A stretch of DNA of 64,000 nucleotides, from the NCBI GenBank assembly GCA_046563655.1, contig JAJCTO010000013.1:1-64000 (forward strand), given 5' to 3'. This stretch comes from Yuukianura sp. NJ FZ-2021. Its lineage: Eukaryota. This document shows positions 1 through 40,944 of the stretch, one piece after another (the first letter of the stretch is position 1; the number at the start of each line of letters is the position of its first letter). A program made the translations under genes and the position numbers. The notes beneath the pieces were generated by a model. That model worked only from the letters and a program-made list of their open reading frames with translations, searched no databases and was not told the origin of the DNA.

Positions 1-2
1 GA

Positions 3-1013
3 AACCAATTGTGGGGAAGTGGAATTTTGGGGGGAACTGCCAAAAGTAACCGTAACGGAAGTTACGCCAGTGGGGATTAGGGTGTAGAGGAGTCCATAAC
101 CCGGGAAATTCGAGGGCAAAAGTGTGGAAAGGTTATGGGGTGAAGAAATGGTGATGGAGCTGCCGGAATTGGGGGAAACTACGTGGGAAGTGACAGATAG
201 CATGGGAGAAACAGAAGTAGAAGCCGAATTAGAGGAAGTGACTGTAGTTGGGGTAAAAACTGAAGTAGCTGGGGCAGGAATTGAACGAGATGTGGAAGGA
301 ATTGGGGGAAGTGAAGCAGAGGAAGTCGGAATTGGTGGGAAAAGTGGTTGTGGGCGAATTGGTGGGGCAAGTGGACGAATTGGTGGGTTGAGTGGACGTG
401 GGGGGTATGGAGTGGGGCGGGAACTGGAAGATCCAGCTTTGGGGAGTTTTGGTGGGCCATCAGGGAATTTCAAATCCATAAGGGAGGGAACTTTAGAGGC
501 CGCACCTCTCTTAAGGATTGAAGTGGGAACGGTTTTTGAGCCGCTAGGACGGGAATTGGGGTTCAAACAGGATTTGGGGGGAACAACGACGACAGATCGG
601 AGCTTTGGGGTTACAGAAGATGAGGGTGGGGCAGAAACCATCTCTTGGAGGCTACGAAGGGGACCGTGTGCTTGGGTAGAAGAGTGGGGCAGTAGTTGGG
701 GGGTCTTGGGGGGAGTCTTCGGAGGGGCAGGAGAATCCCAATCAACATCGGCAGCGTCCATTGGCGTCGGAGCAGCATTTTGAGCAGGAGTTGATGTAGA
801 CGGAGTTGGTAGTGGCGGAGAGACGACAACAACGGGTGCTGGAAGAGCTGGAGAGGCGATGACAGTGGACGGAGAGGAAGATGACGACGAATCCGAAGAG
901 GAAGGCGAATTCGGAGGTGGTGGAGAGGCTCGTAACAACGCTTCTTCTTCCTCTTTGGCCAAGTCAACTTCAGCAATGCCTTCTTCAGGCCCAAGGTCCA
1001 TCTCCTCGTCCAT
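3..1013 (-). CDS. ORF3 of the retroelement, at least 337 aa and open at the window edge; acidic N-terminus then Pro/Ser/Thr-rich; function unknown
   Basis: Manual translation from ATG 1013 (MDEEMDLGPEEGIAEVDLAKEEEEALLRASPPPPNSPSSS...SSPQNSTSPQLV) has no stop down to base 3. The ATG directly follows a splice acceptor, 33 nt after the pol stop. Absent from the ORF track, probably because it has no stop in the window. Confidence 0.7.
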   Translation of the reverse strand, partial: MDEEMDLGPEEGIAEVDLAKEEEEALLRASPPPPNSPSSSDSSSSSSPSTVIASPALPAPVVVVSPPLPTPSTSTPAQNAAPTPMDAADVDWDSPAPPKTPPKTPQLLPHSSTQAHGPLRSLQEMVSAPPSSSVTPKLRSVVVVPPKSCLNPNSRPSGSKTVPTSILKRGAASKVPSLMDLKFPDGPPKLPKAGSSSSRPTPYPPRPLNPPIRPLAPPIRPQPLFPPIPTSSASLPPIPSTSRSIPAPATSVFTPTTVTSSNSASTSVSPMLSVTSHVVSPNSGSSITISSPHNLSTLLPSNFPGYGLLYTLIPTGVTSVTVTFGSSPQNSTSPQLV

Positions 1014-1046
1014 CTGCAAATAAATAAAAGAACAGTATGAGTAAAA
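1014..1046 (-). promoter_or_regulatory. Putative 3' splice acceptor for a subgenomic ORF3 mRNA
   Basis: Minus strand reads TTTTACTCATACTGTTCTTTTATTTATTTGCAG|ATG: a branch-like TACTCAT, a pyrimidine tract and a terminal CAG. Confidence 0.65.
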
Positions 1047-4000
1047 TTACTCAGTCAGGTGTGCTTTGCGCTGGTATTTTCGCGCTAAACGGAAAGTAGC
1101 TTTAGGGGCAGCAGCGCGTTTTGGGCGATTAGAAATCGGGGGGTTCGTGTTGGCAGGGACACAAACAGCGGGATTTTCGCTAACGACAGGAGGCAGGGGA
1201 TCCTGCGCTTGCGCAATCGATGGAATTGGGATTTCTTGGTCACAACGCGATTCGGGACTTGGAATGACATTATCGGGAGGGTCAGAATTTTGGGGGAGGG
1301 GCGGGTTTGAAGTACTGGGGTCGTTTTGGGGCAATTGGTTCTGTCGTTGGGGTAACTTAATTTGGGTTTGGGGCAGGAAATTTCTGGCGACGGCTGGTTC
1401 GGAAACGACGGGAGGGGGCTCAAAATCGCTGTCACACGACTCGTAAGTGGAGGAACTACTTTCCGCTGACGCAGAGGAGCTTTCCTCACGCGCCTTATAG
1501 GGTTTTAAACGCTGGATATTGACAACTGTCTCGTAGGGCTTATGGGGGACAAGGGAAGTGATACGAACGGTGGAGTTTGCGTAGACTTCTAGGATTTTGT
1601 AGGGACCATTCCATTTGCGGGTGAACTTTTTGACATGGGACTTTTTCCTTTGGAAATTTCTGACAAGAACTTTCATCCCGACGACGTATTTAGGGTAGTG
1701 GACTTGCGTTTGGGCTTGCGCACGGAGGATTTGTTGTTCTCGAGACAGCTCGTGAGCGACATTATTTGCCTCAAATAAACGATCTAAGTAATCGTCTTGG
1801 GGTAACTCGTCAGGGGGCAAAAGGAAGAGCTTGTCAACAGGAAGAACAGGCTCACGACCGTAAACCAAGAAGTACGCAGAGAAAGTCGTAGTTTTGTGGA
1901 CGGAACAATTCAAGGAGAAGACGGCACGGGGAACGTGGAGGTCCCAATCTTTGTGATTGTCGGAAACAAATTTTGCTATGACGGACTTGACTGTGCCGTT
2001 ATGACGCTCACAAACGCCATTCGACTGGGGATGGTAGGAAGTCGTACTGCGGTGTTCAATGGCGTGGTGTTTACAGAACTCAGCGAATTCTTCCGACTGG
2101 AAAACCGAACCACGATCGGAGAGAAGGATTTTGGGGACTCCGTGTCGGTAGAGGACATGTTTCGTCAGGACCTTGATGGCGTGAGCAGAAGTTGCTGCGG
2201 GGACTGGCCAGGCTTCCACGTAGCGGGTGTGGAGGTCAACAATGGTCAAGATGTACGTGTTTCTTCTCGCCGTGAGGGGGAAGGGGCCAATGTAGTCCAG
2301 CGCTAGGGATTGGAAGGGGACAGAGGGAACGTCTAGTCCGACGCTATTTGGGGGTAGGGGGAAGTACCGACGATTGTGGATCTGGCATTCGTGACACGAA
2401 TTGACGTATTTTACAACGTCACGGTACATCCGAGGCCAGTAGAAGCGTGAACGGAGTATATGCCAAGTTTTGTGGAGTCCGAGGTGACTTAGGGAGTCTG
2501 TATGGGCCGATTCCATTGTGGATTTTCTAAGGGACTTAGGAAGAACTAAACGCCACAAGTTACCAAACTCGGAATAATTAATTCTGTATAAAACACCATT
2601 TCGTAGGCTATACTCACGTACGTGTTTCGGCTCTTTAAGGGAATGTTGTTTACCAGACTGCTCGGCTTTAAGATACTCGATTATCGGTGACCAATCCGGT
2701 TCTTTAAGTTGGAGCTCACGAAGTTTGGTGTCACGGACTCTTCGGGGGGCATCTGGGGAAACGTTGAGCGCCAACAAGTGGTGCTCAATCGCTAAATGGT
2801 CAGTGTCGGAAGGGGCAGGGTCAACGGGGTTACGGGAAAGGGGATCCGCGTCTGTGTGTACTCTTCCGTTTCTGTGTATCACCGTAAAGTCGTAAGGTTG
2901 GAGGGCTAGGGACCAACGGGATATTTGTCCGTACGGATCTTTAAATTTTAGCATGTTACAGAGGGAATGGTGGTCTGTAACAACTTTAAAGTGTCTTCCG
3001 TAGAGATAGGGACGGAACTTTTCAACTGCCCAAACGAACGCTTTCATTTCGAGCTGGGGAGTACCAAATTTGGATTCGGAGGGGGAAAGGGCACGGGACG
3101 CATAGGCGACAACTCTTTCTTGTCCATCTTGCATCTGGGTCAACGTAGCACCAAAACCAAGTCCTGACGCATCGCAATGAACTGCTGTCTCCGCTTCCTC
3201 ATCAGGAAACGCTAAGACAGGGGCTGAGGTCAACTTGTCTTTGAGGGTTTGGAAAGCTTCTTCAGCTTCTGGGGGCCAAGTAAAGGGGTCAGTTCGGGTT
3301 TTTGCGCAGAGGACATGGAGGGGACGGGCAATGTTCGCAAAGTTCTCTACAAATCTGCGGTAGTAACTACACAGACTCACGAATGATCTTACACCTCGGG
3401 AATTTTTGGGAGTGGGAAACTCTCGAACTGCGTGGGTTTTGGCGGGGTCAACGGAAATTCCGTCGCGGGAAATTATGTGGCCAAGGAATTTCAGGGAATC
3501 TTCTCCAAAATTGCACTTCTTCGGCTTTAGACTGAGTCCAGCACGTCGAAGGCAGGAGAAGACTTGGGAAAGGTGGTCAAGGTGCTCCTCAAATGTCCGG
3601 GAAAAACAGGTAATGTCGTCAAGGTAGATTAGGGCAACTGTCCATTTTAAACGTCCCAAGACATTGTCTATGAGACGCTGCCAAGTACTGGGGGCATTAC
3701 ACAGACCAAAGGGCATGACGACAAACTCATATTGTCCGTCGGGGGTTACAAAACTTGTCTTTTCGCGATCTTGGGGGTCAACCTCGATTTGGTAGTAGGC
3801 TTGGTCGCAGTCCATGGAAGAGAAGTACTTGGCGCCATTGAGACGATCTAGGGTGTCGTCTATTCGGGGGAGGGGGTAGGAGTCTTTTCGGGTAACTTCG
3901 TTAAGTTTTCGGAAATCCACGCAGAACCTCCAGCTATTGTCTGGCTTCTTAACCAGAAGGACGGGGGAACACCAGGGACTGTCACTAGGGGTTATCGCTC

Positions 4001-6257
4001 CAAGGTCTAGAAGTCTTTCAACTTCTTTCTGGATTTCACGTCTTTCAGTGAAACCAGTTCTGTGGGGATGGGTACGAATGGGAGGGGCATCTCCAGTGTC
4101 TATTTTGTGGGTAACAAGATGAGTTCGTCCTAGGGTTTTGGGGTCAAAGTTGAAAACATCCATGTTGGAAACAAGGAAATTTTTCATTTTCTCTTGCTGT
4201 TCGGGGGTTAGGGTTTTGGAAATTTGGAACGCATCGATCCGTTTTTGAAGTCTCAGAGCCGTTATTTCGGCATCGTCGTCATCATTGACGACAAAATTAC
4301 AAATCGAATGCGCTGGGAGGGAAGATTGGGAAGATTTGTTATGTACAGGGTCGAATTCGTCAAGGTTACAGATCACAGAGGATTCTGCAAAGGGTTCGAA
4401 GGTGCCAATGGAGATATTTTGTAGTAGTTTGACTGGCCGGTCGCTCAAGTTCCAGAGATAGGTGACTCCAGTGCCATCGTGTAAGTGGGAAATTGAATTT
4501 CCTATGGCGACGTGACGAGCATATTGCAGCTCTTTTCTCGGAGAAATTAGGATATCCCCGGTAAACGGAGTATCTGACCGAACGCTGACGCGTTTCATGG
4601 TCCGTGGATTGATGATATAGGAACGAGCCAACCGGAGAAAGTCAGGCGAAGTGGCACTTTGGGACAAATTGGAATTGTCAACGAAGGATGCTTCAGAGTC
4701 CTGTAGAGTACTGGGGTTGGAAGAATCGGAGTTTTCGGACGAACTCTGGGGTTTGGGCTGACACTTTGGAGACTGTTTGGGGGGTTTGGGCTTTACCTTT
4801 CTGGGTTTGGGGACTGGGGGTTCGGGGGGTGAACTGGAGGGATCTGAACCATCTCTATCCGACGGATCGGACAGAGACAGCTTGTGGAGGGCATTAAATT
4901 CGGACTTCTTGACTAGCACGTACTCATTTCTGAGATCAGTGCATTGGAGTTCACCTCTTACGAGGCGTTCGTTGAGGGGGTCGAGGAGAAGCCGCTCGGA
5001 ACGGAGAAAATCCGAACCGATGACTATGTCGTTAGACAAATGGGGGAAAATATGGAAGGGATATTTGAAGGGGACGCCAGCAATGGAGAATTCAATGTCG
5101 ACTGATTGGAGGGAATCGCATGGAATGTAACTTCCAAAAGACAGCTTAACCCTTACGGGTTGAACATTGTTCACATTGGAAACAACGCTGGGGAATTTGG
5201 ACAGAAAACTGGGATGGACACAACAGAGCGAAGCTCCGCTATCGCAAAGGACAGGGATGGTGGTTGAGGCAAAGACAACGTCAATGTGGAATGTGGAATA
5301 CTTTGGGGCATTGAGGGCGGCTATTACATTCGCGGCGGAAACACCACAGGGCAGTTCGGAGTCTGGGTCTGGGGACATTGGGGCTTGGGGCGGAAATACT
5401 GGGGAAACTGCGTCTGCGTCTGGACTGGCTGTAGCAACCCAATCATCAACTCGGCTCACATTGTTCGGATGGATCCCAAATCTGGAGGTCAACGAAAATT
5501 CGGGGCAGGGAGGGGGCATAACGACTGGGGGGTTCAATGGGGGGAAAACACAAAGGTCAGAAGTACCAATGGCTACGGAAACGACAGGCTTTACGGAAAC
5601 TTCGGAAGGCACACAACGGGATTTGGGTCTGGAAACGGCGGGAAAATCCTGTGGAGAGGTTTGAGGTGCCTCCCCAACGACTAAGGGTAAAGTACGGTCA
5701 TTGTGGGGACAACATTTGGGACAGGACACTTTTTGGTTTAGGGCTTGTTGGAGTTTGTTGTACAACTCTTGGGGAATGAGTGGACTCTGAGAACTAGGCT
5801 TTCTGCCAAAAGCCGACAAGTTCTTATAAATGGGGAAAGTTGGTTGTTTGTTTTTTCGTCTTTTGGTTCTTAATTGGGCATTATTTGGTGGTAAGGTCAT
5901 AGTAGGGGTGGGGACTGGAAGCGGCTGTCGTCCCTGCAACGACAGCGCTATTAGTTTTCCGGGGGTTTGGGAACGATGGCGTCTCCAATTTTCTTGAGTA
6001 GATCCGTCATGGCTGAAAAGCCTTGGATAATCCTGGGACCCCAATGGTCGTCTGGGTTCTGGGGGTTTGGAGCAGTTTGTGGGGCTTGGGAGGGTCCAGG
6101 GGATGGTTTGTAAACCACAGAAGTCTGGGGGGCAACAACCTGAGCATAGGACACAGGCTGCTGTGGGAACTGACCATAACCTTGCGGCTGTGTGGGACGG
6201 GGTTTGAGGGGGTGACATCCGTTGGCGAGGGGATCCTTGCCTTGGCTTCTCCACCAA
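1047..6257 (-). CDS. pol: Pol polyprotein (aspartic protease, reverse transcriptase, RNase H, DDE integrase); probably entered by -1 frameshift near 5957
   Basis: Protease LCDSGASL (~5235). RT WRFCVDFRKLN, MPFGLCNAP and YLDD (3615-3626). RNase H HCDASG..E..VVTDH..DADPLSR. Integrase H-H-C-C zinc motif, LALDYIGP / LLSDRG / SNGVCERHN triad and WNGPY. Uninterrupted 1736-codon frame. Confidence 0.97.
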   Translation of the reverse strand: MVEKPRQGSPRQRMSPPQTPSHTAARLWSVPTAACVLCSGCCPPDFCGLQTIPWTLPSPTNCSKPPEPRRPLGSQDYPRLFSHDGSTQENWRRHRSQTPGKLIALSLQGRQPLPVPTPTMTLPPNNAQLRTKRRKNKQPTFPIYKNLSAFGRKPSSQSPLIPQELYNKLQQALNQKVSCPKCCPHNDRTLPLVVGEAPQTSPQDFPAVSRPKSRCVPSEVSVKPVVSVAIGTSDLCVFPPLNPPVVMPPPCPEFSLTSRFGIHPNNVSRVDDWVATASPDADAVSPVFPPQAPMSPDPDSELPCGVSAANVIAALNAPKYSTFHIDVVFASTTIPVLCDSGASLCCVHPSFLSKFPSVVSNVNNVQPVRVKLSFGSYIPCDSLQSVDIEFSIAGVPFKYPFHIFPHLSNDIVIGSDFLRSERLLLDPLNERLVRGELQCTDLRNEYVLVKKSEFNALHKLSLSDPSDRDGSDPSSSPPEPPVPKPRKVKPKPPKQSPKCQPKPQSSSENSDSSNPSTLQDSEASFVDNSNLSQSATSPDFLRLARSYIINPRTMKRVSVRSDTPFTGDILISPRKELQYARHVAIGNSISHLHDGTGVTYLWNLSDRPVKLLQNISIGTFEPFAESSVICNLDEFDPVHNKSSQSSLPAHSICNFVVNDDDDAEITALRLQKRIDAFQISKTLTPEQQEKMKNFLVSNMDVFNFDPKTLGRTHLVTHKIDTGDAPPIRTHPHRTGFTERREIQKEVERLLDLGAITPSDSPWCSPVLLVKKPDNSWRFCVDFRKLNEVTRKDSYPLPRIDDTLDRLNGAKYFSSMDCDQAYYQIEVDPQDREKTSFVTPDGQYEFVVMPFGLCNAPSTWQRLIDNVLGRLKWTVALIYLDDITCFSRTFEEHLDHLSQVFSCLRRAGLSLKPKKCNFGEDSLKFLGHIISRDGISVDPAKTHAVREFPTPKNSRGVRSFVSLCSYYRRFVENFANIARPLHVLCAKTRTDPFTWPPEAEEAFQTLKDKLTSAPVLAFPDEEAETAVHCDASGLGFGATLTQMQDGQERVVAYASRALSPSESKFGTPQLEMKAFVWAVEKFRPYLYGRHFKVVTDHHSLCNMLKFKDPYGQISRWSLALQPYDFTVIHRNGRVHTDADPLSRNPVDPAPSDTDHLAIEHHLLALNVSPDAPRRVRDTKLRELQLKEPDWSPIIEYLKAEQSGKQHSLKEPKHVREYSLRNGVLYRINYSEFGNLWRLVLPKSLRKSTMESAHTDSLSHLGLHKTWHILRSRFYWPRMYRDVVKYVNSCHECQIHNRRYFPLPPNSVGLDVPSVPFQSLALDYIGPFPLTARRNTYILTIVDLHTRYVEAWPVPAATSAHAIKVLTKHVLYRHGVPKILLSDRGSVFQSEEFAEFCKHHAIEHRSTTSYHPQSNGVCERHNGTVKSVIAKFVSDNHKDWDLHVPRAVFSLNCSVHKTTTFSAYFLVYGREPVLPVDKLFLLPPDELPQDDYLDRLFEANNVAHELSREQQILRAQAQTQVHYPKYVVGMKVLVRNFQRKKSHVKKFTRKWNGPYKILEVYANSTVRITSLVPHKPYETVVNIQRLKPYKAREESSSASAESSSSTYESCDSDFEPPPVVSEPAVARNFLPQTQIKLPQRQNQLPQNDPSTSNPPLPQNSDPPDNVIPSPESRCDQEIPIPSIAQAQDPLPPVVSENPAVCVPANTNPPISNRPKRAAAPKATFRLARKYQRKAHLTE
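5920..5960 (-). promoter_or_regulatory. Putative -1 programmed ribosomal frameshift signal (slippery site plus stem-loop)
   Basis: G_GAA_AAC (5960-5954) lies immediately before the gag stop TAA and is followed by a GCTGTCGT/ACGACAGC stem with a 7-nt loop. Pol is in the -1 frame relative to gag. Confidence 0.65.
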
Positions 6258-7317
6258 TTGTGGCAGTAACGCTGGATATGGCCTGTGCGACTACAAAAGT
6301 CGCAAATCGGACGTCCATCTTCTGCACGTCTACGTTGTGGCTGTGTCTGTCCGGCTGCTTGTGCTGCGGGAAGTAGGGCTTGGGCTTGGTACTGAGAGAC
6401 TGGCTGCTGTACTGGGAACTGGGGAGCTGGTAGTGTACCAACTGGGGGGTAATAGGGCTGAGGAGGGGGATTATTTCCAGATTCAAGGGCATGGAGGGAA
6501 AGTACTTGGGATGATATGTCTTTGGGGCGGGTATGAACTTCTGCGACTCTGCGCAGAAGCTTTTGGAAATCAGCAGAAGTGGGAATCGACTGGAGTACGA
6601 AAGACTGTTCCAAGTCTGGGGGTAACCCACGAACGAGGCGCTTGACCTTGGATTCTTCGCTCATGTAGGGGTTGATTTTGGACATGAGTTCCAGTTTTTC
6701 TGCGACGTACTTGTCGATGTTGTCACCCAGTTTTACCGTAGGGCTTTGTTCATGTTACGGAGTTCTTCTGCTCGTTCTCGTAGGGAAAAGTGGGCAACAA
6801 ATCGGGTTTCGAAATCATTCCAAATTTCTTCGGCATCAGCGTTGGTAGCTTCCAGTCGTGCTCGAAAGCTTGGCCACACGGAGGCAAACCACGATTGAGC
6901 AACTCCGGTTACCACACGGTCGAAATGGCAAAGGGCTCCTTTGGGACCAAACCCAGAGTCGGCTAGATCGTACATGTAGCGGGCTAGGAATTCTGCGGGA
7001 TCTGTCGTGCCATCGTATTGTCGGATGTATTTGAATACTTTGATGTCAGGGCGACGATCGTTTGGATTGGGCTGAGCTTGGGTTTGGGGCGGGGGTACTA
7101 TGTGTGGTACATTGGGGGGACTTCCTGCTGGTCTTGGGGACGCAAGTGGGGTAGGGGTTACTGGACGGGGAATACTCGTGGGAACAGGGATTGAAGTACC
7201 CTGGGTAGCAGGGGCTGGGACTGGAATGGGAAACGAGCCAGTGTTTGTTTGACTGTTTCGTCTTTGGTGGGGCTGGGGTGCAATCTCTGGGGCATAGCGC
7301 GTAGCGAACCACGGCAT
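5951..7317 (-). pseudogene. gag: gag of copy 1, split by a 1-nt deletion at ~6733 (real mutation or sequencing error)
   Basis: ORFs 6733-7317 and 5951-6685 match the two ends of the intact 455-aa Gag of copy 2. Copy 1 has cccagttttaccg where copies 2 and 3 have cccagtttgtaccg. CX2CX4HX4C knuckle CDFCSRTGHIQRYC. Confidence 0.9.
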
Positions 7318-7332
7318 TTTGAGGGGGGGGGG

Positions 7333-7707
7333 TTAATACTCGTCAATGACAAGCAATCCTTGGTAACGGGCAAAGATGACTAGGAGGGTTCTGTACCAGG
7401 GACCGAAGAAACTCCAATGGTAGTGGTTGAGCCGGACAATAAGGGCAATGTAGTAGTAGGCTTCGGTATAGGGTAGAACGTTAAGGAAGATCCGGTATTC
7501 GTTTGGGTGTTGTCGTAGCCGGTAAATGGGGAATAGGTGGAGTACGGAAAAGTCAAAGACTGTGGCTAGGATTCCGTAAAAACAACTTTTAGTTGCTGAG
7601 GTTAGGAGGTAGTAGGAGAAAACAATGAGATGAGCACCCAAATAGATGCCAATTAGGGACAGGACAAGGATTACGGATAGTCTCAACCAGTAGAGAAAGT
7701 TCCACAT
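7333..7707 (-). CDS. Leader small ORF, 124 aa, hydrophobic putative membrane protein
   Basis: ATG start, N-terminal hydrophobic stretch LSVILVLSLIGIYLGAHLIVFSYYLL, stop 15 nt before the gag ATG. Intact in all three copies. Confidence 0.55.
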   Translation of the reverse strand: MWNFLYWLRLSVILVLSLIGIYLGAHLIVFSYYLLTSATKSCFYGILATVFDFSVLHLFPIYRLRQHPNEYRIFLNVLPYTEAYYYIALIVRLNHYHWSFFGPWYRTLLVIFARYQGLLVIDEY

Positions 7708-7758
7708 GGGTGGGGGTTCAGGGGCGGGGGGTTTTCAACAGTTACTTGAAGTAACTTG

Positions 7759-7878
7759 CTATTGGGGGAACAGCCGTCTCAGTTGTCGGAGGAGGAATCG
7801 TTCCAAAATGGTTCGTAGGACTTCGTAGACGACAATGAGTACCAGGACCAGAGTTAGCCACACGATCGTTTCAATCAT
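7759..7878 (-). CDS. Leader small ORF, 39 aa, predicted single-pass membrane peptide with Arg-rich tail
   Basis: Manual translation MIETIVWLTLVLVLIVVYEVLRTILERFLLRQLRRLFPQ*. The ATG is 21 nt downstream of a CTAAT...TTTCAG acceptor. Confidence 0.55.
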   Translation of the reverse strand: MIETIVWLTLVLVLIVVYEVLRTILERFLLRQLRRLFPQ

Positions 7879-7899
7879 TCGGGGAGCGGGGATACTTTT

Positions 7900-7920
7900 C
7901 TGAAATATAGGGATAATTAG
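7900..7920 (-). promoter_or_regulatory. Putative splice acceptor in the retroelement leader
   Basis: Minus strand CTAATTATCCCTATATTTCAG|AAAAG (branch-like CTAAT plus TTTCAG), at the end of an AT-rich intron-like stretch. Confidence 0.5.
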
Positions 7921-8070
7921 AATATGGACAAAAAAATAATTGGTTTCTTAATTAGGGGACTAAATTATTTTTAAATTTAAATACCAAAACCTAGAAACAA
8001 AAGAAAAATTATTAAAGAAACGAAGATGGGCTATGGGGCTATGGTTTGTACCAAATTCCACCAAAACCTT

Positions 8071-8205
8071 TTAAATCCGATGAAGAATGAGCCAAAAACA
8101 CGCGAAAACCAAAAGTGCAGTAGTCACTTTGGCTAACGAGAGCCAAACCAACACACCGCAAAACCAAAGAAAGAATTCAACCAAAAGAGGGGAGGGTTGA
8201 ACCAT
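8071..8205 (-). CDS. Leader small ORF, 44 aa from ATG, very hydrophobic (tentative)
   Basis: MVQPSPLLVEFFLWFCGVLVWLSLAKVTTALLVFACFWLILHRI*. Intact in all copies, but lies in T-rich sequence that would bias codons toward hydrophobic residues. Confidence 0.3.
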   Translation of the reverse strand: MVQPSPLLVEFFLWFCGVLVWLSLAKVTTALLVFACFWLILHRI

Positions 8206-9035
8206 AACACACCGACTTTGGGAAAATTTGGGGTGGGTAGGGGCTTTCGGATTCAAAAATCCGAGAAATCCGAAGAATTCCGACGATTAGGTAGGGTACT
8301 GCAACGTGGGGATATGCGAAATCGCAATAGGGGAATTATCCGATGAGTCTGGGGAATGGTCGCACCTGGTTGCGTCCAAGTCGCAAGTGGCTGCGATCGG
8401 CGCCGACTGTGGAGTTGGATGTGGCAGTTGGGGGGATACTCGGTGGGACTAGGGAGATAAATCGCTAAGTGTTTTAGTTTTTGGGAAAATCGGGCAGCGT
8501 TTTGGTACGAAGTGAGGGAATTCCAAATTGGGTTATGTTTCAATAGGGGGGGGGGCGAAGGGGCGGAGAAACAAATTGAAAAACTTGCTAAGTTTTGGGA
8601 ATTGGGAAAAATTTGGGCAGAGTTCTGTTACGGGGTGAGGGAAAGCCAATTTAGGTACTGTTCAGTGGGGGGGAATACAAAATTTTTGAAAAATCGGCAA
8701 AGTATTTGAAATTTTAGAAAATTTTGGACAGGGGTTTGTTTAGGGATTTAGAATTTCAATTTAAGGTAAGGTTCAGGGAAGGGAAGGTCACTTGGAGGAG
8801 AGTAAATGACTTTATGTGGTAGTGGGACTACTTTTGGACTTTGGTGGGGCTGGTGGGGACGAAAAACGCTAAGTTTTTAAATTTTGAAAAAAATTTGCGC
8901 GGGGGAGGGTTAGGGAAAGCGATTTAGCGCAAAAAATGGGGTCACTTTAAGGGAGTAGGGGGATAAACGCCGGGGGGTGGGGCGCTACAACGCAACAAAA
9001 CAACAACCTGACCTTTGATTTGACCTTGGTGGCTC

Positions 9036-9130
9036 TTCGGTGGCTCAGTAGTCGCTCGGAGGGCGGTTGTTCAGAAGAAAGTCGGTGGCTCAGAAGACAA
9101 TCGGTGGCTCAGAAGACAAATCGGTGGCTC
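9036..9130. repeat. Short direct repeats (TCGGTGGCTC[AGAAGACAA]) in the leader
   Basis: TCGGTGGCTC occurs four times, the last three at 19-20 bp spacing. Confidence 0.8.
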
Positions 9131-9257
9131 TCGCTTCTTTGGCTCAAAAGTTTGGAGGACGGAGGAGCTGAAAAAAATCGAAAAAACAATGAAACAAAAG
9201 GACAAAAATTATGCTAAAAAACAAAATTTAAATTAGGGGGGGGGATATTCTGGTGGG

Positions 9258-9910
9258 TGTGAGGGAATTTGAGGTCAAAGGTCAAGGAAAGCCCGTCTGA
9301 GGCCCCACTTAAGAGGAGGTAGACTCCTCAACGGGCCGCCGTGCAGGCACCCGGAATGATGGGTCAATGAACGGGTCACGAGAGTGACCCGGAACAATAA
9401 ATCAGACGTGGAGTGGGCGGATAATGGGGAAAACAAAGTAACCTTACGTTTATTTGCAAATAATCAATGAAAAAACGAAAAAGAACCAAATGGTGGGCTG
9501 TCCAGGGCTTGGTGGGTCTTGTCCAGTGCTTGGTGGGTCTTGTCCAGTGCTTTGTGGGTCTTGTCCAGAGCGGCGTGGCAGCCAAAGATGGCGGACGGAA
9601 AAGTTGGAGTGGAGAGACGTGGATCCGAACTGGACAACTGGCAGCCGAAGACTGAGGAGGAAGTGGGACATGGGATTCTGCCTGTTCACAGGCAGAAAGT
9701 TCTCGAATCTTCTCGAAGGTGCTTTGGGGGATTCGGGAAGGGGGAAAACACACGGCGGAGTGGGAAAAACGCCTTGTCATGTTCCTTTGCAGGAGCATGG
9801 CAAGGGCTAGTGGGGGAAAATACTGGACTTGGGGAGGAGTCTTGGTTTCATTAGAAACCAAGACTAAAAAGAAATGATTTTCAGACGGGAGAGGGAGTAA
9901 CCTCCTCACA
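9258..9910 (-). repeat. Putative 5' LTR, 653 bp
   Basis: Terminal inverted repeat TGTGAGG...CCTCACA, minus-strand AATAAA at 9454-9449, and an abrupt junction to satellite at 9910. The inner boundary is inferred only from the inverted repeat because the partner LTR is outside the window. Confidence 0.7.
9491..9568. repeat. 21-bp tandem repeat inside the LTR (~3.5 copies)
   Basis: Unit GCTTGGTGGGTCTTGTCCAGT repeated head-to-tail. Confidence 0.85.
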
Positions 9911-12900
9911 ACGGCAATGGAACTTCAGGGGAAACCCCATTATTACATTTTCTAAATCAAAATCGAACATTCAGCATTGTTTGTTATCTTGATTAAATTT
10001 TTTAGGAAATACTTTTTTGTGTCATACTACCAACTTGCACTTCCAATAAAGCACACCTGAATAACTGGTGTTCAACAATAATATGGAATTATATTTTAGC
10101 CCAACTCCACTATGCAACAAGTGCATAAATCTAACTGTCATTTTGGTATAAACTAATGTGCGAACTATACAACGAAGTTTTAAACATACTGAAAAATGGA
10201 ATCTATGCCTTGTTATCGCTTATAACCATCTTCATGATACGCATCTAATACCGGTCCACTTTGTCGTAGTGCATCAACGACTATTACACACAGTGAACCA
10301 CTTGTTATCAGCCTTCATCTTTGAGCAAAAAGGAGAAGTGCCGGTGAAATGACAAGCTCGCCCTCACTTCAGATACCAACCAGTACTCATTTTGACACTA
10401 TGAATCGCAATGACTCAGACGGCAATGGAACTTCAGGGGAAACCCCATTATTACATTTTCTAAATCAAAATCGAACATTCAGCATTGTTTGTTATCTTGA
10501 TTAAATTTTTTAGGAAATACTTTTTTGTGTCATACTACCAACTTGCACTTCCAATAAAGCACACCTGAATAACTGGTGTTCAACAATAATATGGAATTAT
10601 ATTTTAGCCCAACTCCACTATGCAACAAGTGCATAAATCTAACTGTCATTTTGGTATAAACTAATGTGCGAACTATACAACGAAGTTTTAAACATACTGA
10701 AAAATGGAATCTATGCCTTGTTATCGCTTATAACCATCTTCATGATACGCATCTAATACCGGTCCACTTTGTCGTAGTGCATCAACGACTATTACACACA
10801 GTGAACCACTTGTTATCAGCCTTCATCTTTGAGCAAAAAGGAGAAGTGCCGGTGAAATGACAAGCTCGCCCTCACTTCAGATACCAACCAGTACTCATTT
10901 TGACACTATGAATCGCAATGACTCAGACGGCAATGGAACTTCAGGGGAAACCCCATTATTACATTTTCTAAATCAAAATCGAACATTCAGCATTGTTTGT
11001 TATCTTGATTAAATTTTTTAGGAAATACTTTTTTTGTGTCATACTACCAACTTGCACTTCCAATAAAGCACACCTGAATAACTGGTGTTCAACAATAATA
11101 TGGAATTATATTTTAGCCCAACTCCACTATGCAACAAGTGCATAAATCTAACTGTCATTTTGGTATAAACTAATGTGCGAACTATACAACGAAGTTTTAA
11201 ACATACTGAAAAATGGAATCTATGCCTTGTTATCGCTTATAACCATCTTCATGATACGCATCTAATACCGGTCCACTTTGTCGTAGTGCATCAACGACTA
11301 TTACACACAGTGAACCACTTGTTATCAGCCTTCATCTTTGAGCAAAAAGGAGAAGTGCCGGTGAAATGACAAGCTCGCCCTCACTTCAGATACCAACCAG
11401 TACTCATTTTGACACTATGAATCGCAATGACTCAGACGGCAATGGAACTTCAGGGGAAACCCCATTATTACATTTTCTAAATCAAAATCGAACATTCAGC
11501 ATTGTTTGTTATCTTGATTAAATTTTTTAGGAAATACTTTTTTTGTGTCATACTACCAACTTGCACTTCCAATAAAGCACACCTGAATAACTGGTGTTCA
11601 ACAATAATATGGAATTATATTTTAGCCCAACTCCACTATGCAACAAGTGCATAAATCTAACTGTCATTTTGGTATAAACTAATGTGCGAACTATACAACG
11701 AAGTTTTAAACATACTGAAAAATGGAATCTATGCCTTGTTATCGCTTATAACCATCTTCATGATACGCATCTAATACCGGTCCACTTTGTCGTAGTGCAT
11801 CAACGACTATTACACACAGTGAACCACTTGTTATCAGCCTTCATCTTTGAGCAAAAAGGAGAAGTGCCGGTGAAATGACAAGCTCGCCCTCACTTCAGAT
11901 ACCAACCAGTACTCATTTTGACACTATGAATCGCAATGACTCAGACGGCAATGGAACTTCAGGGGAAACCCCATTATTACATTTTCTAAATCAAAATCGA
12001 ACATTCAGCATTGTTTGTTATCTTGATTAAATTTTTTAGGAAATACTTTTTTGTGTCATACTACCAACTTGCACTTCCAATAAAGCACACCTGAATAACT
12101 GGTGTTCAACAATAATATGGAATTATATTTTAGCCCAACTCCACTATGCAACAAGTGCATAAATCTAACTGTCATTTTGGTATAAACTAATGTGCGAACT
12201 ATACAACGAAGTTTTAAACATACTGAAAAATGGAATCTATGCCTTGTTATCGCTTATAACCATCTTCATGATACGCATCTAATACCGGTCCACTTTGTCG
12301 TAGTGCATCAACGACTATTACACACAGTGAACCACTTGTTATCAGCCTTCATCTTTGAGCAAAAAGGAGAAGTGCCGGTGAAATGACAAGCTCGCCCTCA
12401 CTTCAGATACCAACCAGTACTCATTTTGACACTATGAATCGCAATGACTCAGACGGCAATGGAACTTCAGGGGAAACCCCATTATTACATTTTCTAAATC
12501 AAAATCGAACATTCAGCATTGTTTGTTATCTTGATTAAATTTTTTAGGAAATACTTTTTTTGTGTCATACTACCAACTTGCACTTCCAATAAAGCACACC
12601 TGAATAACTGGTGTTCAACAATAATATGGAATTATATTTTAGCCCAACTCCACTATGCAACAAGTGCATAAATCTAACTGTCATTTTGGTATAAACTAAT
12701 GTGCGAACTATACAACGAAGTTTTAAACATACTGAAAAATGGAATCTATGCCTTGTTATCGCTTATAACCATCTTCATGATACGCATCTAATACCGGTCC
12801 ACTTTGTCGTAGTGCATCAACGACTATTACACACAGTGAACCACTTGTTATCAGCCTTCATCTTTGAGCAAAAAGGAGAAGTGCCGGTGAAATGACAAGC

Positions 12901-15900
12901 TCGCCCTCACTTCAGATACCAACCAGTACTCATTTTAACACTATGAATCGCAATGACTCAGACGGCAATGGAACTTCAGGGGAAACCCCATTATTACATT
13001 TTCTAAATCAAAATCGAACATTCAGCATTGTTTGTTATCTTGATTAAATTTTTTAGGAAATACTTTTTTTGTGTCATACTACCAACTTGCACTTCCAATA
13101 AAGCACACCTGAATAACTGGTGTTCAACAATAATATGGAATTATGTTTTAGCCCAACTCCACTATGCAACAAGTGCATAAATCTAACTGTCATTTTGGTA
13201 TAAACTAATGTGCGAACTATACAACGAAGTTTTAAACATACTGAAAAATGGAATCTATGCCTTGTTATCGCTTATAACCATCTTCATGATACGCATCTAA
13301 TACCGGTCCACTTTGTCGTAGTGCATCAACGACTATTACACACAGTGAACCACTTGTTATCAGCCTTCATCTTTGAGCAAAAAGGAGAAGTGCCGGTGAA
13401 ATGACAAGCTCGCCCTCACTTCAGATACCAACCAGTACTCATTTTGACACTATGAATCGCAATGACTCAGACGGCAATGGAACTTCAGGGGAAACCCCAT
13501 TATTACATTTTCTAAATCAAAATCGAACATTCAGCATTGTTTGTTATCTTGATTAAATTTTTTAGGAAATACTTTTTTTGTGTCATACTACCAACTTGCA
13601 CTTCCAATAAAGCACACCTGAATAACTGGTGTTCAACAATAATATGGAATTATATTTTAGCCCAACTCCACTATGCAACAAGTGCATAAATCTAACTGTC
13701 ATTTTGGTATAAACTAATGTGCGAACTATACAACGAAGTTTTAAACATACTGAAAAATGGAATCTATGCCTTGTTATCGCTTATAACCATCTTCATGATA
13801 CGCATCTAATACCGGTCCACTTTGTCGTAGTGCATCAACGACTATTACACACAGTGAACCACTTGTTATCAGCCTTCATCTTTGAGCAAAAAGGAGAAGT
13901 GCCGGTGAAATGACAAGCTCGCCCTCACTTCAGATACCAACCAGTACTCATTTTGACACTATGAATCGCAATGACTCAGACGGCAATGGAACTTCAGGGG
14001 AAACCCCATTATTACATTTTCTAAATCAAAATCGAACATTCAGCATTGTTTGTTATCTTGATTAAATTTTTTAGGAAATACTTTTTTTGTGTCATACTAC
14101 CAACTTGCACTTCCAATAAAGCACACCTGAATAACTGGTGTTCAACAATAATATGGAATTATATTTTAGCCCAACTCCACTATGCAACAAGTGCATAAAT
14201 CTAACTGTCATTTTGGTATAAACTAATGTGCGAACTATACAACGAAGTTTTAAACATACTGAAAAATGGAATCTATGCCTTGTTATCGCTTATAACCATC
14301 TTCATGGAACGCATCTAATACCGGTCCACTTTGTCGTAGTGCATCAACGACTATTACACACAGTGAACCACTTGTTATCAGCCTTCATCTTTGAGCAAAA
14401 AGGAGAAGTGCCGGTGAAATGACAAGCTCGCCCTCACTTCAGATACCAACCAGTACTCATTTTGACACTATGAATCGCAATGACTCAGACGGCAATGGAA
14501 CTTCAGGGGAAACCCCATTATTACATTTTCTAAATCAAAATCGAACATTCAGCATTGTTTGTTATCTTGATTAAATTTTTTAGGAAATACTTTTTTTGTG
14601 TCATACTACCAACTTGCACTTCCAATAAAGCACACCTGAATAACTGGTGTTCAACAATAATATGGAATTATGTTTTAGCCCAACTCCACTATGCAACAAG
14701 TGCATAAATCTAACTGTCATTTTGGTATAAACTAATGTGCGAACTATACAACGAAGTTTTAAACATACTGAAAAATGGAATCTATGCCTTGTTATCGCTT
14801 ATAACCATCTTCATGATACGCATCTAATACCGGTCCACTTTGTCGTAGTGCATCAACGACTATTACACACAGTGAACCACTTGTTATCAGCCTTCATCTT
14901 TGAGCAAAAAGGAGAAGTGCCGGTGAAATGACAAGCTCGCCCTCACTTCAGATACCAACCAGTACTCATTTTGACACTATGAATCGCAATGACTCAGACG
15001 GCAATGGAACTTCAGGGGAAACCCCATTATTACATTTTCTAAATCAAAATCGAACATTCAGCATTGTTTGTTATCTTGATTAAATTTTTTAGGAAATACT
15101 TTTTTTGTGTCATACTACCAACTTGCACTTCCAATAAAGCACACCTGAATAACTGGTGTTCAACAATAATATGGAATTATATTTTAGCCCAACTCCACTA
15201 TGCAACAAGTGCATAAATCTAACTGTCATTTTGGTATAAACTAATGTGCGAACTATACAACGAAGTTTTAAACATACTGAAAAATGGAATCTATGCCTTG
15301 TTATCGCTTATAACCATCTTCATGATACGCATCTAATACCGGTCCACTTTGTCGTAGTGCATCAACGACTATTACACACAGTGAACCACTTGTTATCAGC
15401 CTTCATCTTTGAGCAAAAAGGAGAAGTGCCGGTGAAATGACAAGCTCGCCCTCACTTCAGATACCAACCAGTACTCATTTTGACACTATGAATCGCAATG
15501 ACTCAGACGGCAATGGAACTTCAGGGGAAACCCCATTATTACATTTTCTAAATCAAAATCGAACATTCAGCATTGTTTGTTATCTTGATTAAATTTTTTA
15601 GGAAATACTTTTTTTGTGTCATACTACCAACTTGCACTTCCAATAAAGCACACCTGAATAACTGGTGTTCAACAATAATATGGAATTATATTTTAGCCCA
15701 ACTCCACTATGCAACAAGTGCATAAATCTAACTGTCATTTTGGTATAAACTAATGTGCGAACTATACAACGAAGTTTTAAACATACTGAAAAATGGAATC
15801 TATGCCTTGTTATCGCTTATAACCATCTTCATGGAACGCATCTAATACCGGTCCACTTTGTCGTAGTGCATCAACGACTATTACACACAGTGAACCACTT

Positions 15901-16286
15901 GTTATCAGCCTTCATCTTTGAGCAAAAAGGAGAAGTGCCGGTGAAATGACAAGCTCGCCCTCACTTCAGATACCAACCAGTACTCATTTTGACACTATGA
16001 ATCGCAATGACTCAGACGGCAATGGAACTTCAGGGGAAACCCCATTATTACATTTTCTAAATCAAAATCGAACATTCAGCATTGTTTGTTATCTTGATTA
16101 AATTTTTTAGGAAATACTTTTTTGCGTCATACTACCAACTTGCACTTCCAATAAAGCACACCTGAATAACTGGTGTTCAACAATAATATGGAATTATATT
16201 TTAGCCCAACTCCACTATGCAACAAGTGCATAAATCTAACTGTCATTTTGGTATAAACTAATGTGCGAACTATACAACGAAGTTTT
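9911..16286. repeat. Satellite A array 1: 12 full 508/509-bp monomers plus one partial
   Basis: Monomer ACGGCAATGGAACTTCAGGGG...GACTCAG recurs every 508-509 bp, near-identical. Confidence 0.98.
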
Positions 16287-16289
16287 GTC

Positions 16290-19200
16290 ATTGCATATAA
16301 AAAACTAGTGTCTTAGGCGACACAGGGTTTTGTATTTTCAATCGTTGTTGCACATGGCTCTCCCTTCTAGTGTATACACATACAGCCAAACAATTCCACT
16401 ACAGTAAATGCTTGCACACTGTCTCGAATGTGGTGATCACATTCCATCTTGCAGCCCACAGACTAGGGACTAAGAGTTGGTTAGTGTGTTCCTGTAACCT
16501 CATTGTAACCTATGCACGTCTAAGTGTCCCTGTTCACGCAGCGGATTTACCTTTGACCAAATTGCTTATTTTGTGGCTTTATGGCCAACGGTCCACACAT
16601 ACATCTATTTCCACTTGCTATTGTCCACAACTGTCGACTTATGATATTTAATTGAGCAGAGCTACGAAGCCAAAAGGCTCCTAAGCACTAGTTATAATTG
16701 CATATAAAAAACTAGTGTCTTAGGCGACACAGGGTTTTGTATTTTCAATCGTTGTTGCACATGGCTCTCCCTTCTAGTGTATACACATACAGCCAAACAA
16801 TTCCACTACAGTAAATGCTTGCACACTGTCTCGAATGTGCTGATCACATTCCAGCTTGCAGCCCACAGACTAGGGACTAAGAGTTGGTTAGTGTGTTAAT
16901 GTAACCTCATTGTAACCTATGCACGTCTAAGTGTCCCTGTTCACGCAGCGGATTTACCTTTGACCAAATTGCTTATTTTGTGGCTTTATGGCCAACGGTC
17001 CACACATACATCTATTTCCACTTGCTATTGTCTACAACTGTCGACTTATGATATTTCATTGAGCAGAGCTTCGTAGCCAAAAGGCTCTTAAGCACTAGTT
17101 ATAATTGCATATAAAAAACTAGTGTCTTAGGCGACACAGGGTTTTGTATTTTCAATCGTTGTTGCACGTGGCTCTCCCTTCTAGTGTATACACATACAGC
17201 CAAACAATTCCACTACAGTAAATGCTTGCACACTGTCTCGAATGTGCTGATCACATTCCCTCTTGCAGCCCACAGACATCTATTTCCACTTGCTATGGTC
17301 TACAACTGTCGACTTATGATATTAAATTGAACAGAGCTACGAAGCCAAAAGGCTCCTAAGCACTAGTTATAATTGCACATAAAAAACTAGTGTCTTAGGC
17401 GACACAGGGTTTTGTATTTTCAATCGTTGTTGCACGTGGCTCTTGCTTCCATTGTATACACATACAGCCAAACAATTCCACTACAGTAAATGCTTGCACA
17501 CTGTCTCGAATGTGCTGATCACATTCCATCTTGCAGCCCACAGACTAGGGACTATAAGTTGGTTAGTGTGTTCCTGCAACCTCATTGTAACCTATGCACG
17601 TCTAAGTGTCCCTGTTCACGCAGCGGATTTACCTTTGACCAAATTGCTTATTTTGTCGCTTTATGGCCAACGGTCCACACATACATCTATTTCCACTTGC
17701 TATTGTCTACAACTGTCGACATGATATTTAATTGAGCAGAGCTTCGAAGCCAAAAGGCTCCTAAGCACTAGTTATAATTGCATATAAAAAACTAGTGTCT
17801 TAGGCGACACAGGGTTTTGTATTTTCAATCGTTGTTGCACATGGCTCTCCCTTCTAGTGTATACACATACAGCCAAACAATTCCACTACAGTAAATGCTT
17901 GCACACTGTCTCGAATGTGGTGATCACATTCCATCTTGCAGCCCACAGACTAGGGACTAAGAGTTGGTTAGTGTGTTCCTGTAACCTCATTGTAACCTAT
18001 GCACGTCTAAGTGTCCCTGTTCACGCAGCGGATTTACCTTTGACCAAATTGCTTATTTTGTCGCTTTATGGCCAACGGTCCACACATACATCTATTTCCA
18101 CTTGCTATTGTCTACAACTGTCGACATGATATTTAATTGAGCAGAGCTTCGAAGCCAAAAGGCTCCTAAGCACTAGTTATAATTGCATATAAAAAACTAG
18201 TGTCTTAGGCGACACAGGGTTTTGTATTTTCAATCGTTGTTGCACGTGGCTCTTGCTTCCATTGTATACACATACAGCCAAACAATTCCACTACAGTAAA
18301 TGCTTGCACACTGTCTCGAATGTGCTGATCACATTCCATCTTGCAGCCCACAGACTAGGGACTATAAGTTGGTTAGTGTGTTCCTGCAACCTCATTGTAA
18401 CCTATGCACGTCTAAGTGTCCCTGTTCACGCAGCGGATTTACCTTTGACCAAATTGCTTATTTTGTCGCTTTATGGCCAACGGTCCACACATACATCTAT
18501 TTCCACTTGCTATTGTCTACAACTGTCGACATGATATTTAATTGAGCAGAGCTTCGAAGCCAAAAGGCTCCTAAGCACTAGTTATAATTGCATATAAAAA
18601 ACTAGTGTCTTAGGCGACACAGGGTTTTGTATTTTCAATCGTTGTTGCACATGGCTCTCCCTTCTAGTGTATACACATACAGCCAAACAATTCCACTACA
18701 GTAAATGCTTGCACACTGTCTCGAATGTGGTGATCACATTCCATCTTGCAGCCCACAGACTAGGGACTAAGAGTTGGTTAGTGTGTTCCTGTAACCTCAT
18801 TGTAACCTATGCACGTCTAAGTGTCCCTGTTCACGCAGCGGATTTACCTTTGACCAAATTGCTTATTTTGTCGCTTTATGGCCAACGGTCCACACATACA
18901 TCTATTTCCACTTGCTATTGTCTACAACTGTCGACATGATATTTAATTGAGCAGAGCTTCGAAGCCAAAAGGCTCCTAAGCACTAGTTATAATTGCATAT
19001 AAAAAACTAGTGTCTTAGGCGACACAGGGTTTTGTATTTTCAATCGTTGTTGCACATGGCTCTCCCTTCTAGTGTATACACATACAGCCAAACAATTCCA
19101 CTACAGTAAATGCTTGCACACTGTCTCGAATGTGCTGATCACATTCCAGCTTGCAGCCCACAGAGTAGGGACTAAGAGTTGGTTAGTGTGTTCCTGTAAC

Positions 19201-22200: not shown

Positions 22201-22220
22201 AAACAATTCCACTACAGTAA
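16290..22220. repeat. Satellite B array 1: 15 monomers (405/407 bp, two internally deleted 268-bp) plus one partial
   Basis: ATTGCATATAAAAAACTAGTGTC... recurs with periods of 405, 407 and 268 bp. Confidence 0.98.
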
Positions 22221-25699: not shown

Positions 25700-25716
25700 T
25701 TTGAGGGCGGGGGGGG

Positions 25717-26091
25717 TTAATACTCGTCAATGACAAGCAATCCTTGGTAACGGGCAAAGATGACTAGGAGGGTTCTGTACCAGGGACCGAAGAAACTCCA
25801 ATGGTAGTGGTTGAGCCGGACAATAAGGGCAATGTAGTAGTAGGCTTCGGTATAGGGTAGAACGTTAAGGAAGATCCGGTATTCGTTTGGGTGTTGTCGT
25901 AGCCGGTAAATGGGGAATAGGTGGAGTACGGAAAAGTCAAAGACTGTGGCTAGGATTCCGTAAAAACAACTTTTAGTTGCTGAGGTTAGGAGGTAGTAGG
26001 AGAAAACAATGAGATGAGCACCCAAATAGATGCCAATTAGGGACAGGACAAGGATTACGGATAGTCTCAACCAGTAGAGAAAGTTCCACAT
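25717..26091 (-). CDS. Leader small ORF 124 aa (copy 2)
   Basis: Identical protein to 7333-7707. Confidence 0.55.
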   Translation of the reverse strand: MWNFLYWLRLSVILVLSLIGIYLGAHLIVFSYYLLTSATKSCFYGILATVFDFSVLHLFPIYRLRQHPNEYRIFLNVLPYTEAYYYIALIVRLNHYHWSFFGPWYRTLLVIFARYQGLLVIDEY

Positions 26092-26142
26092 GGGTGGGGG
26101 TTCAGGGGCGGGGGGTTTTCAACAGTTACTTGAAGTAACTTG

Positions 26143-26262
26143 CTATTGGGGGAACAGCCGTCTCAGTTGTCGGAGGAGGAATCGTTCCAAAATGGTTCGT
26201 AGGACTTCGTAGACGACAATGAGTACCAGGACCAGAGTTAGCCACACGATCGTTTCAATCAT
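26143..26262 (-). CDS. Leader small ORF 39 aa (copy 2)
   Basis: Identical to 7759-7878. Confidence 0.5.
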   Translation of the reverse strand: MIETIVWLTLVLVLIVVYEVLRTILERFLLRQLRRLFPQ

Positions 26263-40504: not shown

Positions 40505-40518
40505 TTTGAGGGGGGGGG

Positions 40519-40893: not shown

Positions 40894-40944
40894 GGGTGGG
40901 GGTTCAGGGGCGGGGGGTTTTCAACAGTTACTTGAAGTAACTTG

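Follow-up and report, generated by a model that had tools for sequence, protein, structure and literature searches.

Contig JAJCTO010000013.1 of Yuukianura sp. NJ FZ-2021 (GenBank assembly GCA_046563655.1) carries a Ty3/gypsy-type retroelement on the minus strand at the left end of the region analysed here, and directly behind the pol gene of this element lies a third open reading frame (ORF3) in the position that env holds in related elements. The window, by which we mean the whole stretch of DNA that was analysed, comprises positions 1 to 64,000 of the contig and has a G+C content of 42%. The pol product has the domain order protease (PR), reverse transcriptase (RT), RNase H, integrase (IN) that characterizes Ty3/gypsy elements (Metaviridae), with Pfam matches to RVT_1 (769-929), RT_RNaseH (1020-1122), Integrase_H2C2 (1240-1296) and rve (1314-1410), and the protease motif DSGA is visible in its translation. 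The features around the end of pol are as follows:

1047..6257, minus strand: pol (PR-RT-RNaseH-IN), from Pfam matches and translation, with a Pro/Ser-rich tail and the stop codon TAA at 1049-1047
1014..1046, minus strand: T-rich spacer and candidate 3′ splice acceptor, 33 nt, 58% T, ending in TTTGCAG
3..1013, minus strand: ORF3, with its ATG at 1013 and 337 codons, open at the window edge; the product starts MDEEMDLGPEEGIAEVDLAKEEEE

ORF3 and the end of pol

Read along the minus strand, the pol stop is followed by exactly 33 nt, ttttactcatactgttcttttatttatttgcag, and then by the ATG at 1013-1011; the AG of the spacer at 1015-1014 abuts this ATG with 0 nt between them. A preliminary description of this DNA, made from the sequence alone, had reported a strong splice acceptor fused to an ATG 33 nt after the pol stop, and we confirm this as acceptor-like sequence with the ATG at 1013. 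It had further reported at least 337 open codons that were missing from the list of ORFs; the count holds, and because the frame exits the window at base 3, ORF3 was omitted from a listing of closed ORFs. The description did not remark that ORF3 shares the frame of pol, with only the TAA and 11 sense codons lying between the two.

Alignment A1 comprises 17 pol proteins; 14 of the 16 from relatives reach the end of pol and stop at a common point, which is preceded by a basic motif, R(R/S)xRxR...RY (...RPKRAAAPKATFRLARKYQRKAHLTE in the window element). Since the pol proteins of relatives end at this common point after the basic motif, the stop at 1047 is the natural end of pol, and ORF3 is not a pol tail severed by a recent mutation. 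The acceptor-like signal was assessed with a rule that asks for YAG at most 25 nt from an ATG and for T at no fewer than 10 of the 18 nt that precede it. Of the 91 ATGs that the element strand carries, just two pass (1013 and 1001); among the relatives the rule is passed by 6 of 11 downstream ORF starts, against 464 of 26127 ATGs (1.8%) across the loci (binomial 7e-9), values that should be read with caution given that this rule and a stricter pyrimidine version of it were both set post hoc, after the sequences had been seen. The related locus L005, which is outside the 11 ORF starts counted, also carries an acceptor-like signal. A 37-nt intron running from the GT at 1050 to the AG at 1014 was considered and rejected; it would be very short and would shift into a frame that closes at 611.

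ORF3 is more than a chance open frame. Among 2000 dinucleotide-preserving shuffles a single one left the frame open, and over the same stretch 6 and 11 stops interrupt the two remaining frames of the minus strand. Its base composition differs by codon position (chi2 = 74.8, p = 4e-14, with each half significant), a periodicity similar in kind to that of pol (chi2 103); no three-base periodicity was found in leader, long terminal repeat (LTR) and satellite controls (p = 0.4-0.9). The third-position composition is similar to that of pol, and the only tandem micro-repeats, of 21 nt and 12 nt, are in frame and multiples of three. A coding status for ORF3 appears to be supported by these statistics.

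The predicted product consists of 19.9% Pro, 19.0% Ser and 8.6% Thr (47% together) and contains four PPI[R/P] repeats (residues 210-236), one Cys (residue 149) and four His; residues 1-30 carry a net charge of -10, and residues 121-290 are net basic. The acidic start, the Pro/Ser/Thr-rich body and the PPIRP/PPIP repeats noted in the preliminary description are thereby borne out, as is its statement that the visible part has hardly any Cys and neither signal peptide nor transmembrane (TM) segment. The highest 19-residue Kyte-Doolittle mean over the 337 residues is 1.48, below TM grade; a simple N-terminal charge measure (-10 over 30 residues) indicates no signal peptide; and residues 1-337 contain no R-x-K/R-R followed by a hydrophobic peptide. 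The Baculo_F profile also found no match in residues 1-337, while the positive controls L080 (2.5e-39) and L085 (2.4e-11) matched. Over its visible 337 residues, ORF3 fails every tested feature of an F-type envelope.

The same 337 residues matched no Pfam family at E <= 0.01, nothing in a word-indexed search of 5.8 billion proteins (185-590 aa), none of 1.84 billion representative proteins in an exhaustive HMMER pass, nothing usable in the ESM Atlas and nothing among viral contigs. Three matches in Steroidobacteraceae metagenome-assembled genomes, from a search of prokaryote genome contigs (34-37% identity over 83 Pro/Ser-rich residues) were dismissed as compositional.

The env position in related elements

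The nearest named pol proteins are pseudoscorpion transposon ORFs, at 41-55% identity, and metagenome pol proteins reach ~50%. We compared 97 related loci and reconstructed a phylogeny with FastTree from 745 RT-to-IN positions of 81 sequences, namely the window element together with 80 loci whose coverage of the query was 60% or more. The window element clusters with L001, L002, L005, L024 and L035 with a Shimodaira-Hasegawa-like support of 0.997, and the sister group of this clade consists of L007, L008 and L085 (support 0.949). Pol proteins within the window clade are only 44-52% identical. Three of its members, L001, L005 and L035, retain the region behind pol, and their junctions compare with that of the window element as follows:

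Window: stop TAA; spacer 33 nt, 58% T, CAG; 0 nt from AG to ATG; frame 0 relative to pol; net charge of residues 1-40 = -10
L001: stop TAG; spacer 119 nt, 55% T, CAG; 2 nt from AG to ATG; frame +2; net charge of residues 1-40 = -13
L005: stop TAA; spacer 38 nt, 53% T, CAG; 2 nt from AG to ATG; frame +2; net charge of residues 1-40 = -11
L035: stop TGA; spacer 26 nt, 50% T, CAG; 2 nt from AG to ATG; frame +2; net charge of residues 1-40 = -10

A layout consisting of the pol end, a T-rich spacer, CAG, an ATG and an acidic start is therefore common to all four elements; among background ORFs from the loci, only 0.4% of 506 reach a net charge of -10. Because ORF3 is in frame 0 in the window and in frame +2 in all three relatives, its sharing of the pol frame is not a conserved feature.

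Two of these relatives carry complete ORF3s, of 213 aa (L001) and 145 aa (L035), both with an acidic head and a basic tail. Their C-termini bear a CX2CX4HX4C knuckle, for which the Pfam zf-CCHC match in L035 is below cutoff, and the two proteins align with each other through the knuckle (E = 1e-5); in L001 an arginine-rich run precedes it. Inspection of the two complete sequences revealed no hydrophobic stretch. The ORF3 of L001 is an orphan, with only its self-match among 5.8 billion proteins.

Other relatives hold different genes in this position. L080 encodes a Baculo_F envelope after pol (E = 2.5e-39, Pfam), and L083 has an F-like envelope in the slot, as judged by motifs. In L085, from the sister clade, a signal-peptide-like stretch, a furin-type site and a Baculo_F domain (2.4e-11) follow directly after the pol-end motif. 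L085:948-8108 is a single frame of 2387 codons running from gag through PR, RT, RNase H and IN into the envelope; neither a stop nor an ATG separates the pol-end motif from the signal-peptide-like stretch, and env is fused in frame to pol. In a neighbouring clade the ORFs after pol carry C2H2-type fingers: that of L047 has an acidic start, two fingers and a coiled-coil-like tail, and those of L010, L012, L016, L031 and L036 start with a single finger followed by long Ser/Thr/Pro-rich sequence. The Pfam zf-C2H2 match exceeds the cutoff in L010 and falls short of it in L036, and the other fingers were read from the sequence. The post-pol ORFs of L012 and L016 look clearly related by eye, and T-rich sequence with CAG stands just before the ATG in four of the six members of this group (L010, L012, L016 and L047). 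ORF3 thus occupies exactly the place of env in its relatives, and the window clade has other content there.

Two further loci deserve brief mention. L093:4386-12080 encodes a chromodomain-bearing gypsy-type polyprotein of 2565 codons that matches Dam between RNase H and integrase (PF05869, 3.6e-8) and a C-5 DNA methylase after the chromodomain (PF00145, 5e-5). At L008:3239-4363 a gag-like ORF, with a capsid-like region and a CCHC knuckle, lies ~200-300 nt past the pol end with no recognisable LTR between the two; this arrangement may reflect a tandem or circular-form assembly.

The rest of the element and its surroundings

Upstream of pol, the element comprises the following features:

9257..9910, minus strand: probable 5′ LTR, from TGTGAGG... 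to ...CCCTCACA, with TG..CA ends; boundaries tentative
nearly 2 kb between the probable 5′ LTR and gag, minus strand: leader
8206..9670, minus strand: ATG-free stretch of LTR and leader, 1465 nt, with donor-like sites at 9447, 9012 and 8365
7336..8205, minus strand: three small hydrophobic ORFs upstream of gag (8205..8074, 7878..7762 and 7707..7336)
5954..7317, minus strand: gag, assigned by position and knuckle, in two overlapping frames (7317..6736 and 6754..5954)

The LTR assignment is drawn from the TG..CA ends and from the junction of element and satellite at 9910/9911, the 3′ LTR lying beyond the window; an AATAAA is present near 9455 inside the probable 5′ LTR. The stretch 8206..9670 contains no ATG, where shuffled sequences average 10.5 and none of 1000 is as low, and any splice from there to 1014 would therefore make the AUG of ORF3 the first. 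Both candidate donors named in the preliminary description, aag|GTCAGG (9012) and aac|GTAAGG (9447), do exist; together with the site at 8365 they score 6.7-7.6 bits in a donor matrix. A search of the whole window against Rfam, which extended to a spliced-leader RNA gene in the satellites, gave 0 matches.

The only leader ATGs between LTR and gag are those that start the three small hydrophobic ORFs, of 44 aa (8205..8074), 39 aa (7878..7762) and 124 aa (7707..7336). The 39-aa ORF encodes one TM-like helix followed by a Tyr and a basic tail, and the 124-aa ORF has no match in Pfam. By their placement these ORFs recall sORF1 and sORF2, which lie upstream of gag in MDG1-group elements of Drosophila; sORF2 is a short TM protein and has been proposed to mediate cell-to-cell transfer (PMC11952523). 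Within gag (region 5951-7332), the second frame (6754..5954) carries a CX2CX4HX4C knuckle, read from the sequence, and neither gag piece matches any Pfam gag or capsid family. The gag frame is broken in this copy near 6733-6754, and the window copy is therefore probably non-autonomous.

Satellite DNA with units of 509 bp and 407 bp makes up the bulk of the window, in arrays at 9911-16286 (509 bp) and 16290-22220 (407 bp). Two further copies of the segment 3837-16286, ~99.7% identical, lie at 22220-34670 and 37027-49469, such that the 5′ two-thirds of the element (3837-9910) and the two satellite arrays form a higher-order repeat of ~14.8 kb that is present three times. In copies 2 and 3 of this repeat the element is truncated at 3837, where it abuts the 407-bp satellite. 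Positions 1-3836, which hold ORF3 and the 3′ third of pol, occur once within the window.

Public DNA contigs provide further copies. The whole element, with all three bins of ORF3, is represented in contigs from three runs of a single sample, and a fourth DNA run with another organism label covers 707-1472 at ~94-95% identity; run X4 gave no cover across 1-334. Among the public runs listed as containing the sequence none is of RNA, and in these four DNA runs nothing connects ~1013 with the leader, an outcome that has no bearing on splicing. As the element is covered by contigs of several runs, it constitutes a multi-copy family. The 509-bp satellite is hugely abundant in the DNA runs, with a bin depth more than 100-fold that of the element. 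Among the variant codons listed for pol, 4 are synonymous and 2 non-synonymous, and among the 11 listed for ORF3, 4 are synonymous and 7 non-synonymous with 0 stops; these form a small and selected sample, with 1226 further differences beyond those listed, and fall below what an estimate of the ratio of non-synonymous to synonymous substitution rates (dN/dS) would need.

Interpretation and comparison with known systems

Our best reading is that ORF3 is a fast-evolving accessory gene of an errantivirus-related Ty3/gypsy retroelement, and that it is most like the CERV gene of the Caenorhabditis elegans element Cer1. We consider it somewhat better than an even chance that ORF3 is a real, separately expressed non-envelope gene that uses the acceptor at 1014. 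Under this reading, the T-rich tract and CAG at 1014 would act as a 3′ splice site, and ORF3 would be translated from a sub-genomic mRNA in which splicing places an AUG-free leader ahead of the ATG at 1013, which thereby becomes the first AUG. A donor site within the 5′ leader could be the upstream partner, as could a trans-spliced leader, and an in-frame coding exon is also possible. The visible product has a strongly acidic head (~30 residues) and, behind it, a basic body that is Pro/Ser/Thr-rich and of low complexity. Its likeliest role would be directed at nucleic acid, as a regulator that acts on the export, packaging or transcription of the element's own RNA, and not one in cell entry; this role is suggested by analogy with the CCHC-bearing ORF3s of relatives, the C2H2 ORFs of the neighbouring clade and Cer1 CERV. 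For the window element itself, the CCHC-knuckle ends of its relatives are a lead, not a result.

The preliminary description had likewise proposed a spliced accessory gene of a kind other than env. The part of that proposal that concerns the nature of the gene has held up well, given the coding look of ORF3, the non-envelope character of its visible part, an acceptor-like signal that recurs in relatives and the precedent of CERV; its splicing, along with its translation and function, is what we infer from these observations. Its suggestions of a folded domain outside the window and of a host-interaction, anti-silencing or targeting function are only conjecture.

PMC10309623 and PMC3315495 describe CERV as a large ORF, not Env-like, that is in the env position and in the frame of the polyprotein. 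It has a Cys-rich putative zinc finger, and its acceptor reads TTTCAG in C. elegans and TTGCAG in one other species. According to PMC10309623, CERV is needed for export of the genomic RNA and its splicing is experimentally established; the ORF in the env slot constitutes the C-terminal half in a protein of five exons, the first of which derive from gag; and AlphaFold predicts folded H, M and G domains. Like CERV as so described, ORF3 is a non-Env ORF in the env slot and in the polyprotein frame, behind a T-rich CAG acceptor-like signal (TTTGCAG) that resembles the consensus of a 3′ splice site; for both, homologues are lacking beyond close relatives and divergence is rapid. Unlike CERV, ORF3 has an ATG of its own at the acceptor-like site, its 337 visible residues are of low complexity where folded domains are predicted for CERV, and it is known from sequence alone, whereas the splicing and RNA-export role of CERV are experimental findings. 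The putative finger of CERV is paralleled by CCHC and C2H2 fingers in relatives of the window element and not by the ORF3 of the window. No ORF3 match to CERV-like sequence or fold emerged among the 1.84 billion representatives or in the ESM Atlas, searches that included no direct pairwise test.

Other systems offer more limited parallels. Expression of env through a spliced sub-genomic RNA is an established mode (PMC4402516, PMC10309623), and Ty3/gypsy elements with F-type and gB-type envelopes are reported across metazoans (PMC13524379). ORF3 resembles the Env of Drosophila gypsy and other errantiviruses in its location in the slot directly behind a conserved pol end, and differs in that its 337 residues lack a signal peptide and a furin site as well as a fusion peptide and a TM segment. 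Rev, Tat and Tas are small accessory proteins made from spliced mRNAs, with acidic or leucine-rich parts and basic nucleic-acid-binding parts. The likeness to these proteins is one of architecture only, as in the arginine-rich run that precedes the knuckle in the ORF3 of L001, and involves no homology; no response element was identified in the window element, which is of Metaviridae type. The extra ORFs of plant Ty3/gypsy elements are described as often env-positioned, with no clear homology and no known function (PMC10309623; PMC11963269); they belong to another host kingdom and to other lineages than the window element.

Several observations weigh against our reading and call for caution. 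Only the first 337 residues of ORF3 are visible, its C-terminus lying beyond the window, and residues 1-337 contain no CCHC or C2H2 motif, such that the functional analogy rests on relatives. A search of ORF3 against all ORFs of the 97 related loci (phmmer, blastp) found nothing significant, and a profile of the N-termini of L001, L005 and L035 failed to recover the ORF3 of the window; because these direct searches and the profile found no homology, an E-x-LL-R-x-SP likeness among the four N-termini is anecdotal. Under the stricter pyrimidine rule only 2 of the 11 starts in relatives (L001 and L010) pass, together with the window element. No donor stands out, the leader sites scoring no higher than sites within coding sequence. 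The ratio of 4 synonymous to 7 non-synonymous variants fails to show purifying selection, and the contigs listed over ORF3 are more divergent and more gapped than most of those listed over pol, as would be expected under weak constraint or for a disordered protein that evolves fast. The frame break in gag and the frame shared by ORF3 and pol, which is also compatible with a read-through product, point in the same direction.

One may postulate from some of these observations that ORF3 does not work at all and is a decaying or never-translated C-rich, low-complexity stretch that is open by chance. The lack of a detected homologue, the excess of non-synonymous variants among those listed, the divergent and gapped contigs, the broken gag, the low complexity of ORF3 and an antisense frame of 227 codons that is also open across it would all accord with this scenario. 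We nevertheless regard it as unlikely, given that the frame survives in so few shuffles, that its periodicity is as strong as that of pol and absent from non-coding controls, and that the position and composition of the layout are kept across a clade whose pol proteins have themselves diverged so far.

A second alternative takes ORF3 for the N-terminal portion of an envelope or membrane protein of unusual type, with its signal, fusion and anchor segments beyond the window along with the rest of its C-terminus. ORF3 is exactly in the env slot, where sister and nearby clades have Baculo_F, and the last ~45 visible residues are richer in aromatics and contain two N-x-S/T sequons. We find this improbable, since a start with a charge of -10 and 337 non-hydrophobic residues are unlike the F-type starts of L080, L083 and L085, since the complete ORF3s of L001 and L035 end in a zinc knuckle and have no hydrophobic stretch, and since ORF3 has no Pfam match.

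ORF3 could also be coding and be expressed from an unspliced mRNA whose internal promoter would lie close to the pol end, as reported for the env of some Oikopleura Tor elements (PMC4402516). No strong donor was found in the window element, and splicing from the leader, a trans-spliced leader, an in-frame upstream exon (as in CERV) and an internal promoter would all give a like picture in the DNA. The T-rich tract and CAG at the ATG of four clade members and of several distant relatives are acceptor-like, however, and the long ATG-free leader fits a spliced 5′ untranslated region; we give an internal promoter as little credence as an envelope.

Least probable of all is that ORF3 is a C-terminal extension of Pol made by occasional read-through of the TAA, for instance a long disordered integrase tail involved in targeting: ORF3 lies in the pol frame only one stop and 11 sense codons away, the pol tail is likewise Pro/Ser-rich and the env-slot ORF of L085 is fused to pol without a stop, but the frame is +2 in the three closest relatives (in-frame in one of four, about what chance would give), the pol proteins of relatives that reach the pol end stop at a common point, the 33-nt T-rich spacer differs from the coding sequence on both sides, the RNA downstream of the TAA folds no better than shuffles (z = -0.69, 58 of 200 as good) and so offers no stimulatory structure, and TAA is generally the least leaky stop codon.

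If ORF3 is unexpressed, it is merely an orphan low-complexity ORF in a repeat-rich region. The reading of ORF3 as an expressed non-envelope gene has wider implications, since CERV is the only function-tested non-envelope gene in the env slot of an invertebrate retroelement that we met in the literature searched. Should ORF3 and its counterparts in L001, L005 and L035 be expressed, env would have been replaced by a regulator behind the same acceptor more than once, and the C2H2 ORFs of the neighbouring clade, if expressed, would add to this pattern of repeated replacement. One may speculate, with more doubt than confidence, that in this branch of errantivirus-like Ty3/gypsy elements the content of the env slot is exchanged like a cassette behind a conserved splice acceptor, Baculo_F having been swapped for a fast-evolving Rev/CERV-like or transactivator-like RNA regulator with an acidic head and a basic tail in the window clade and for C2H2 proteins in its neighbour. 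Complex retroviruses of vertebrates are distinguished by their regulatory accessory genes, and if the slot is such a cassette, there would be "complex" retroelements with regulatory genes outside both vertebrate retroviruses and Caenorhabditis. The genes in this slot, if they are expressed, would then provide a natural set of variants for studying how unspliced RNA is exported and controlled.

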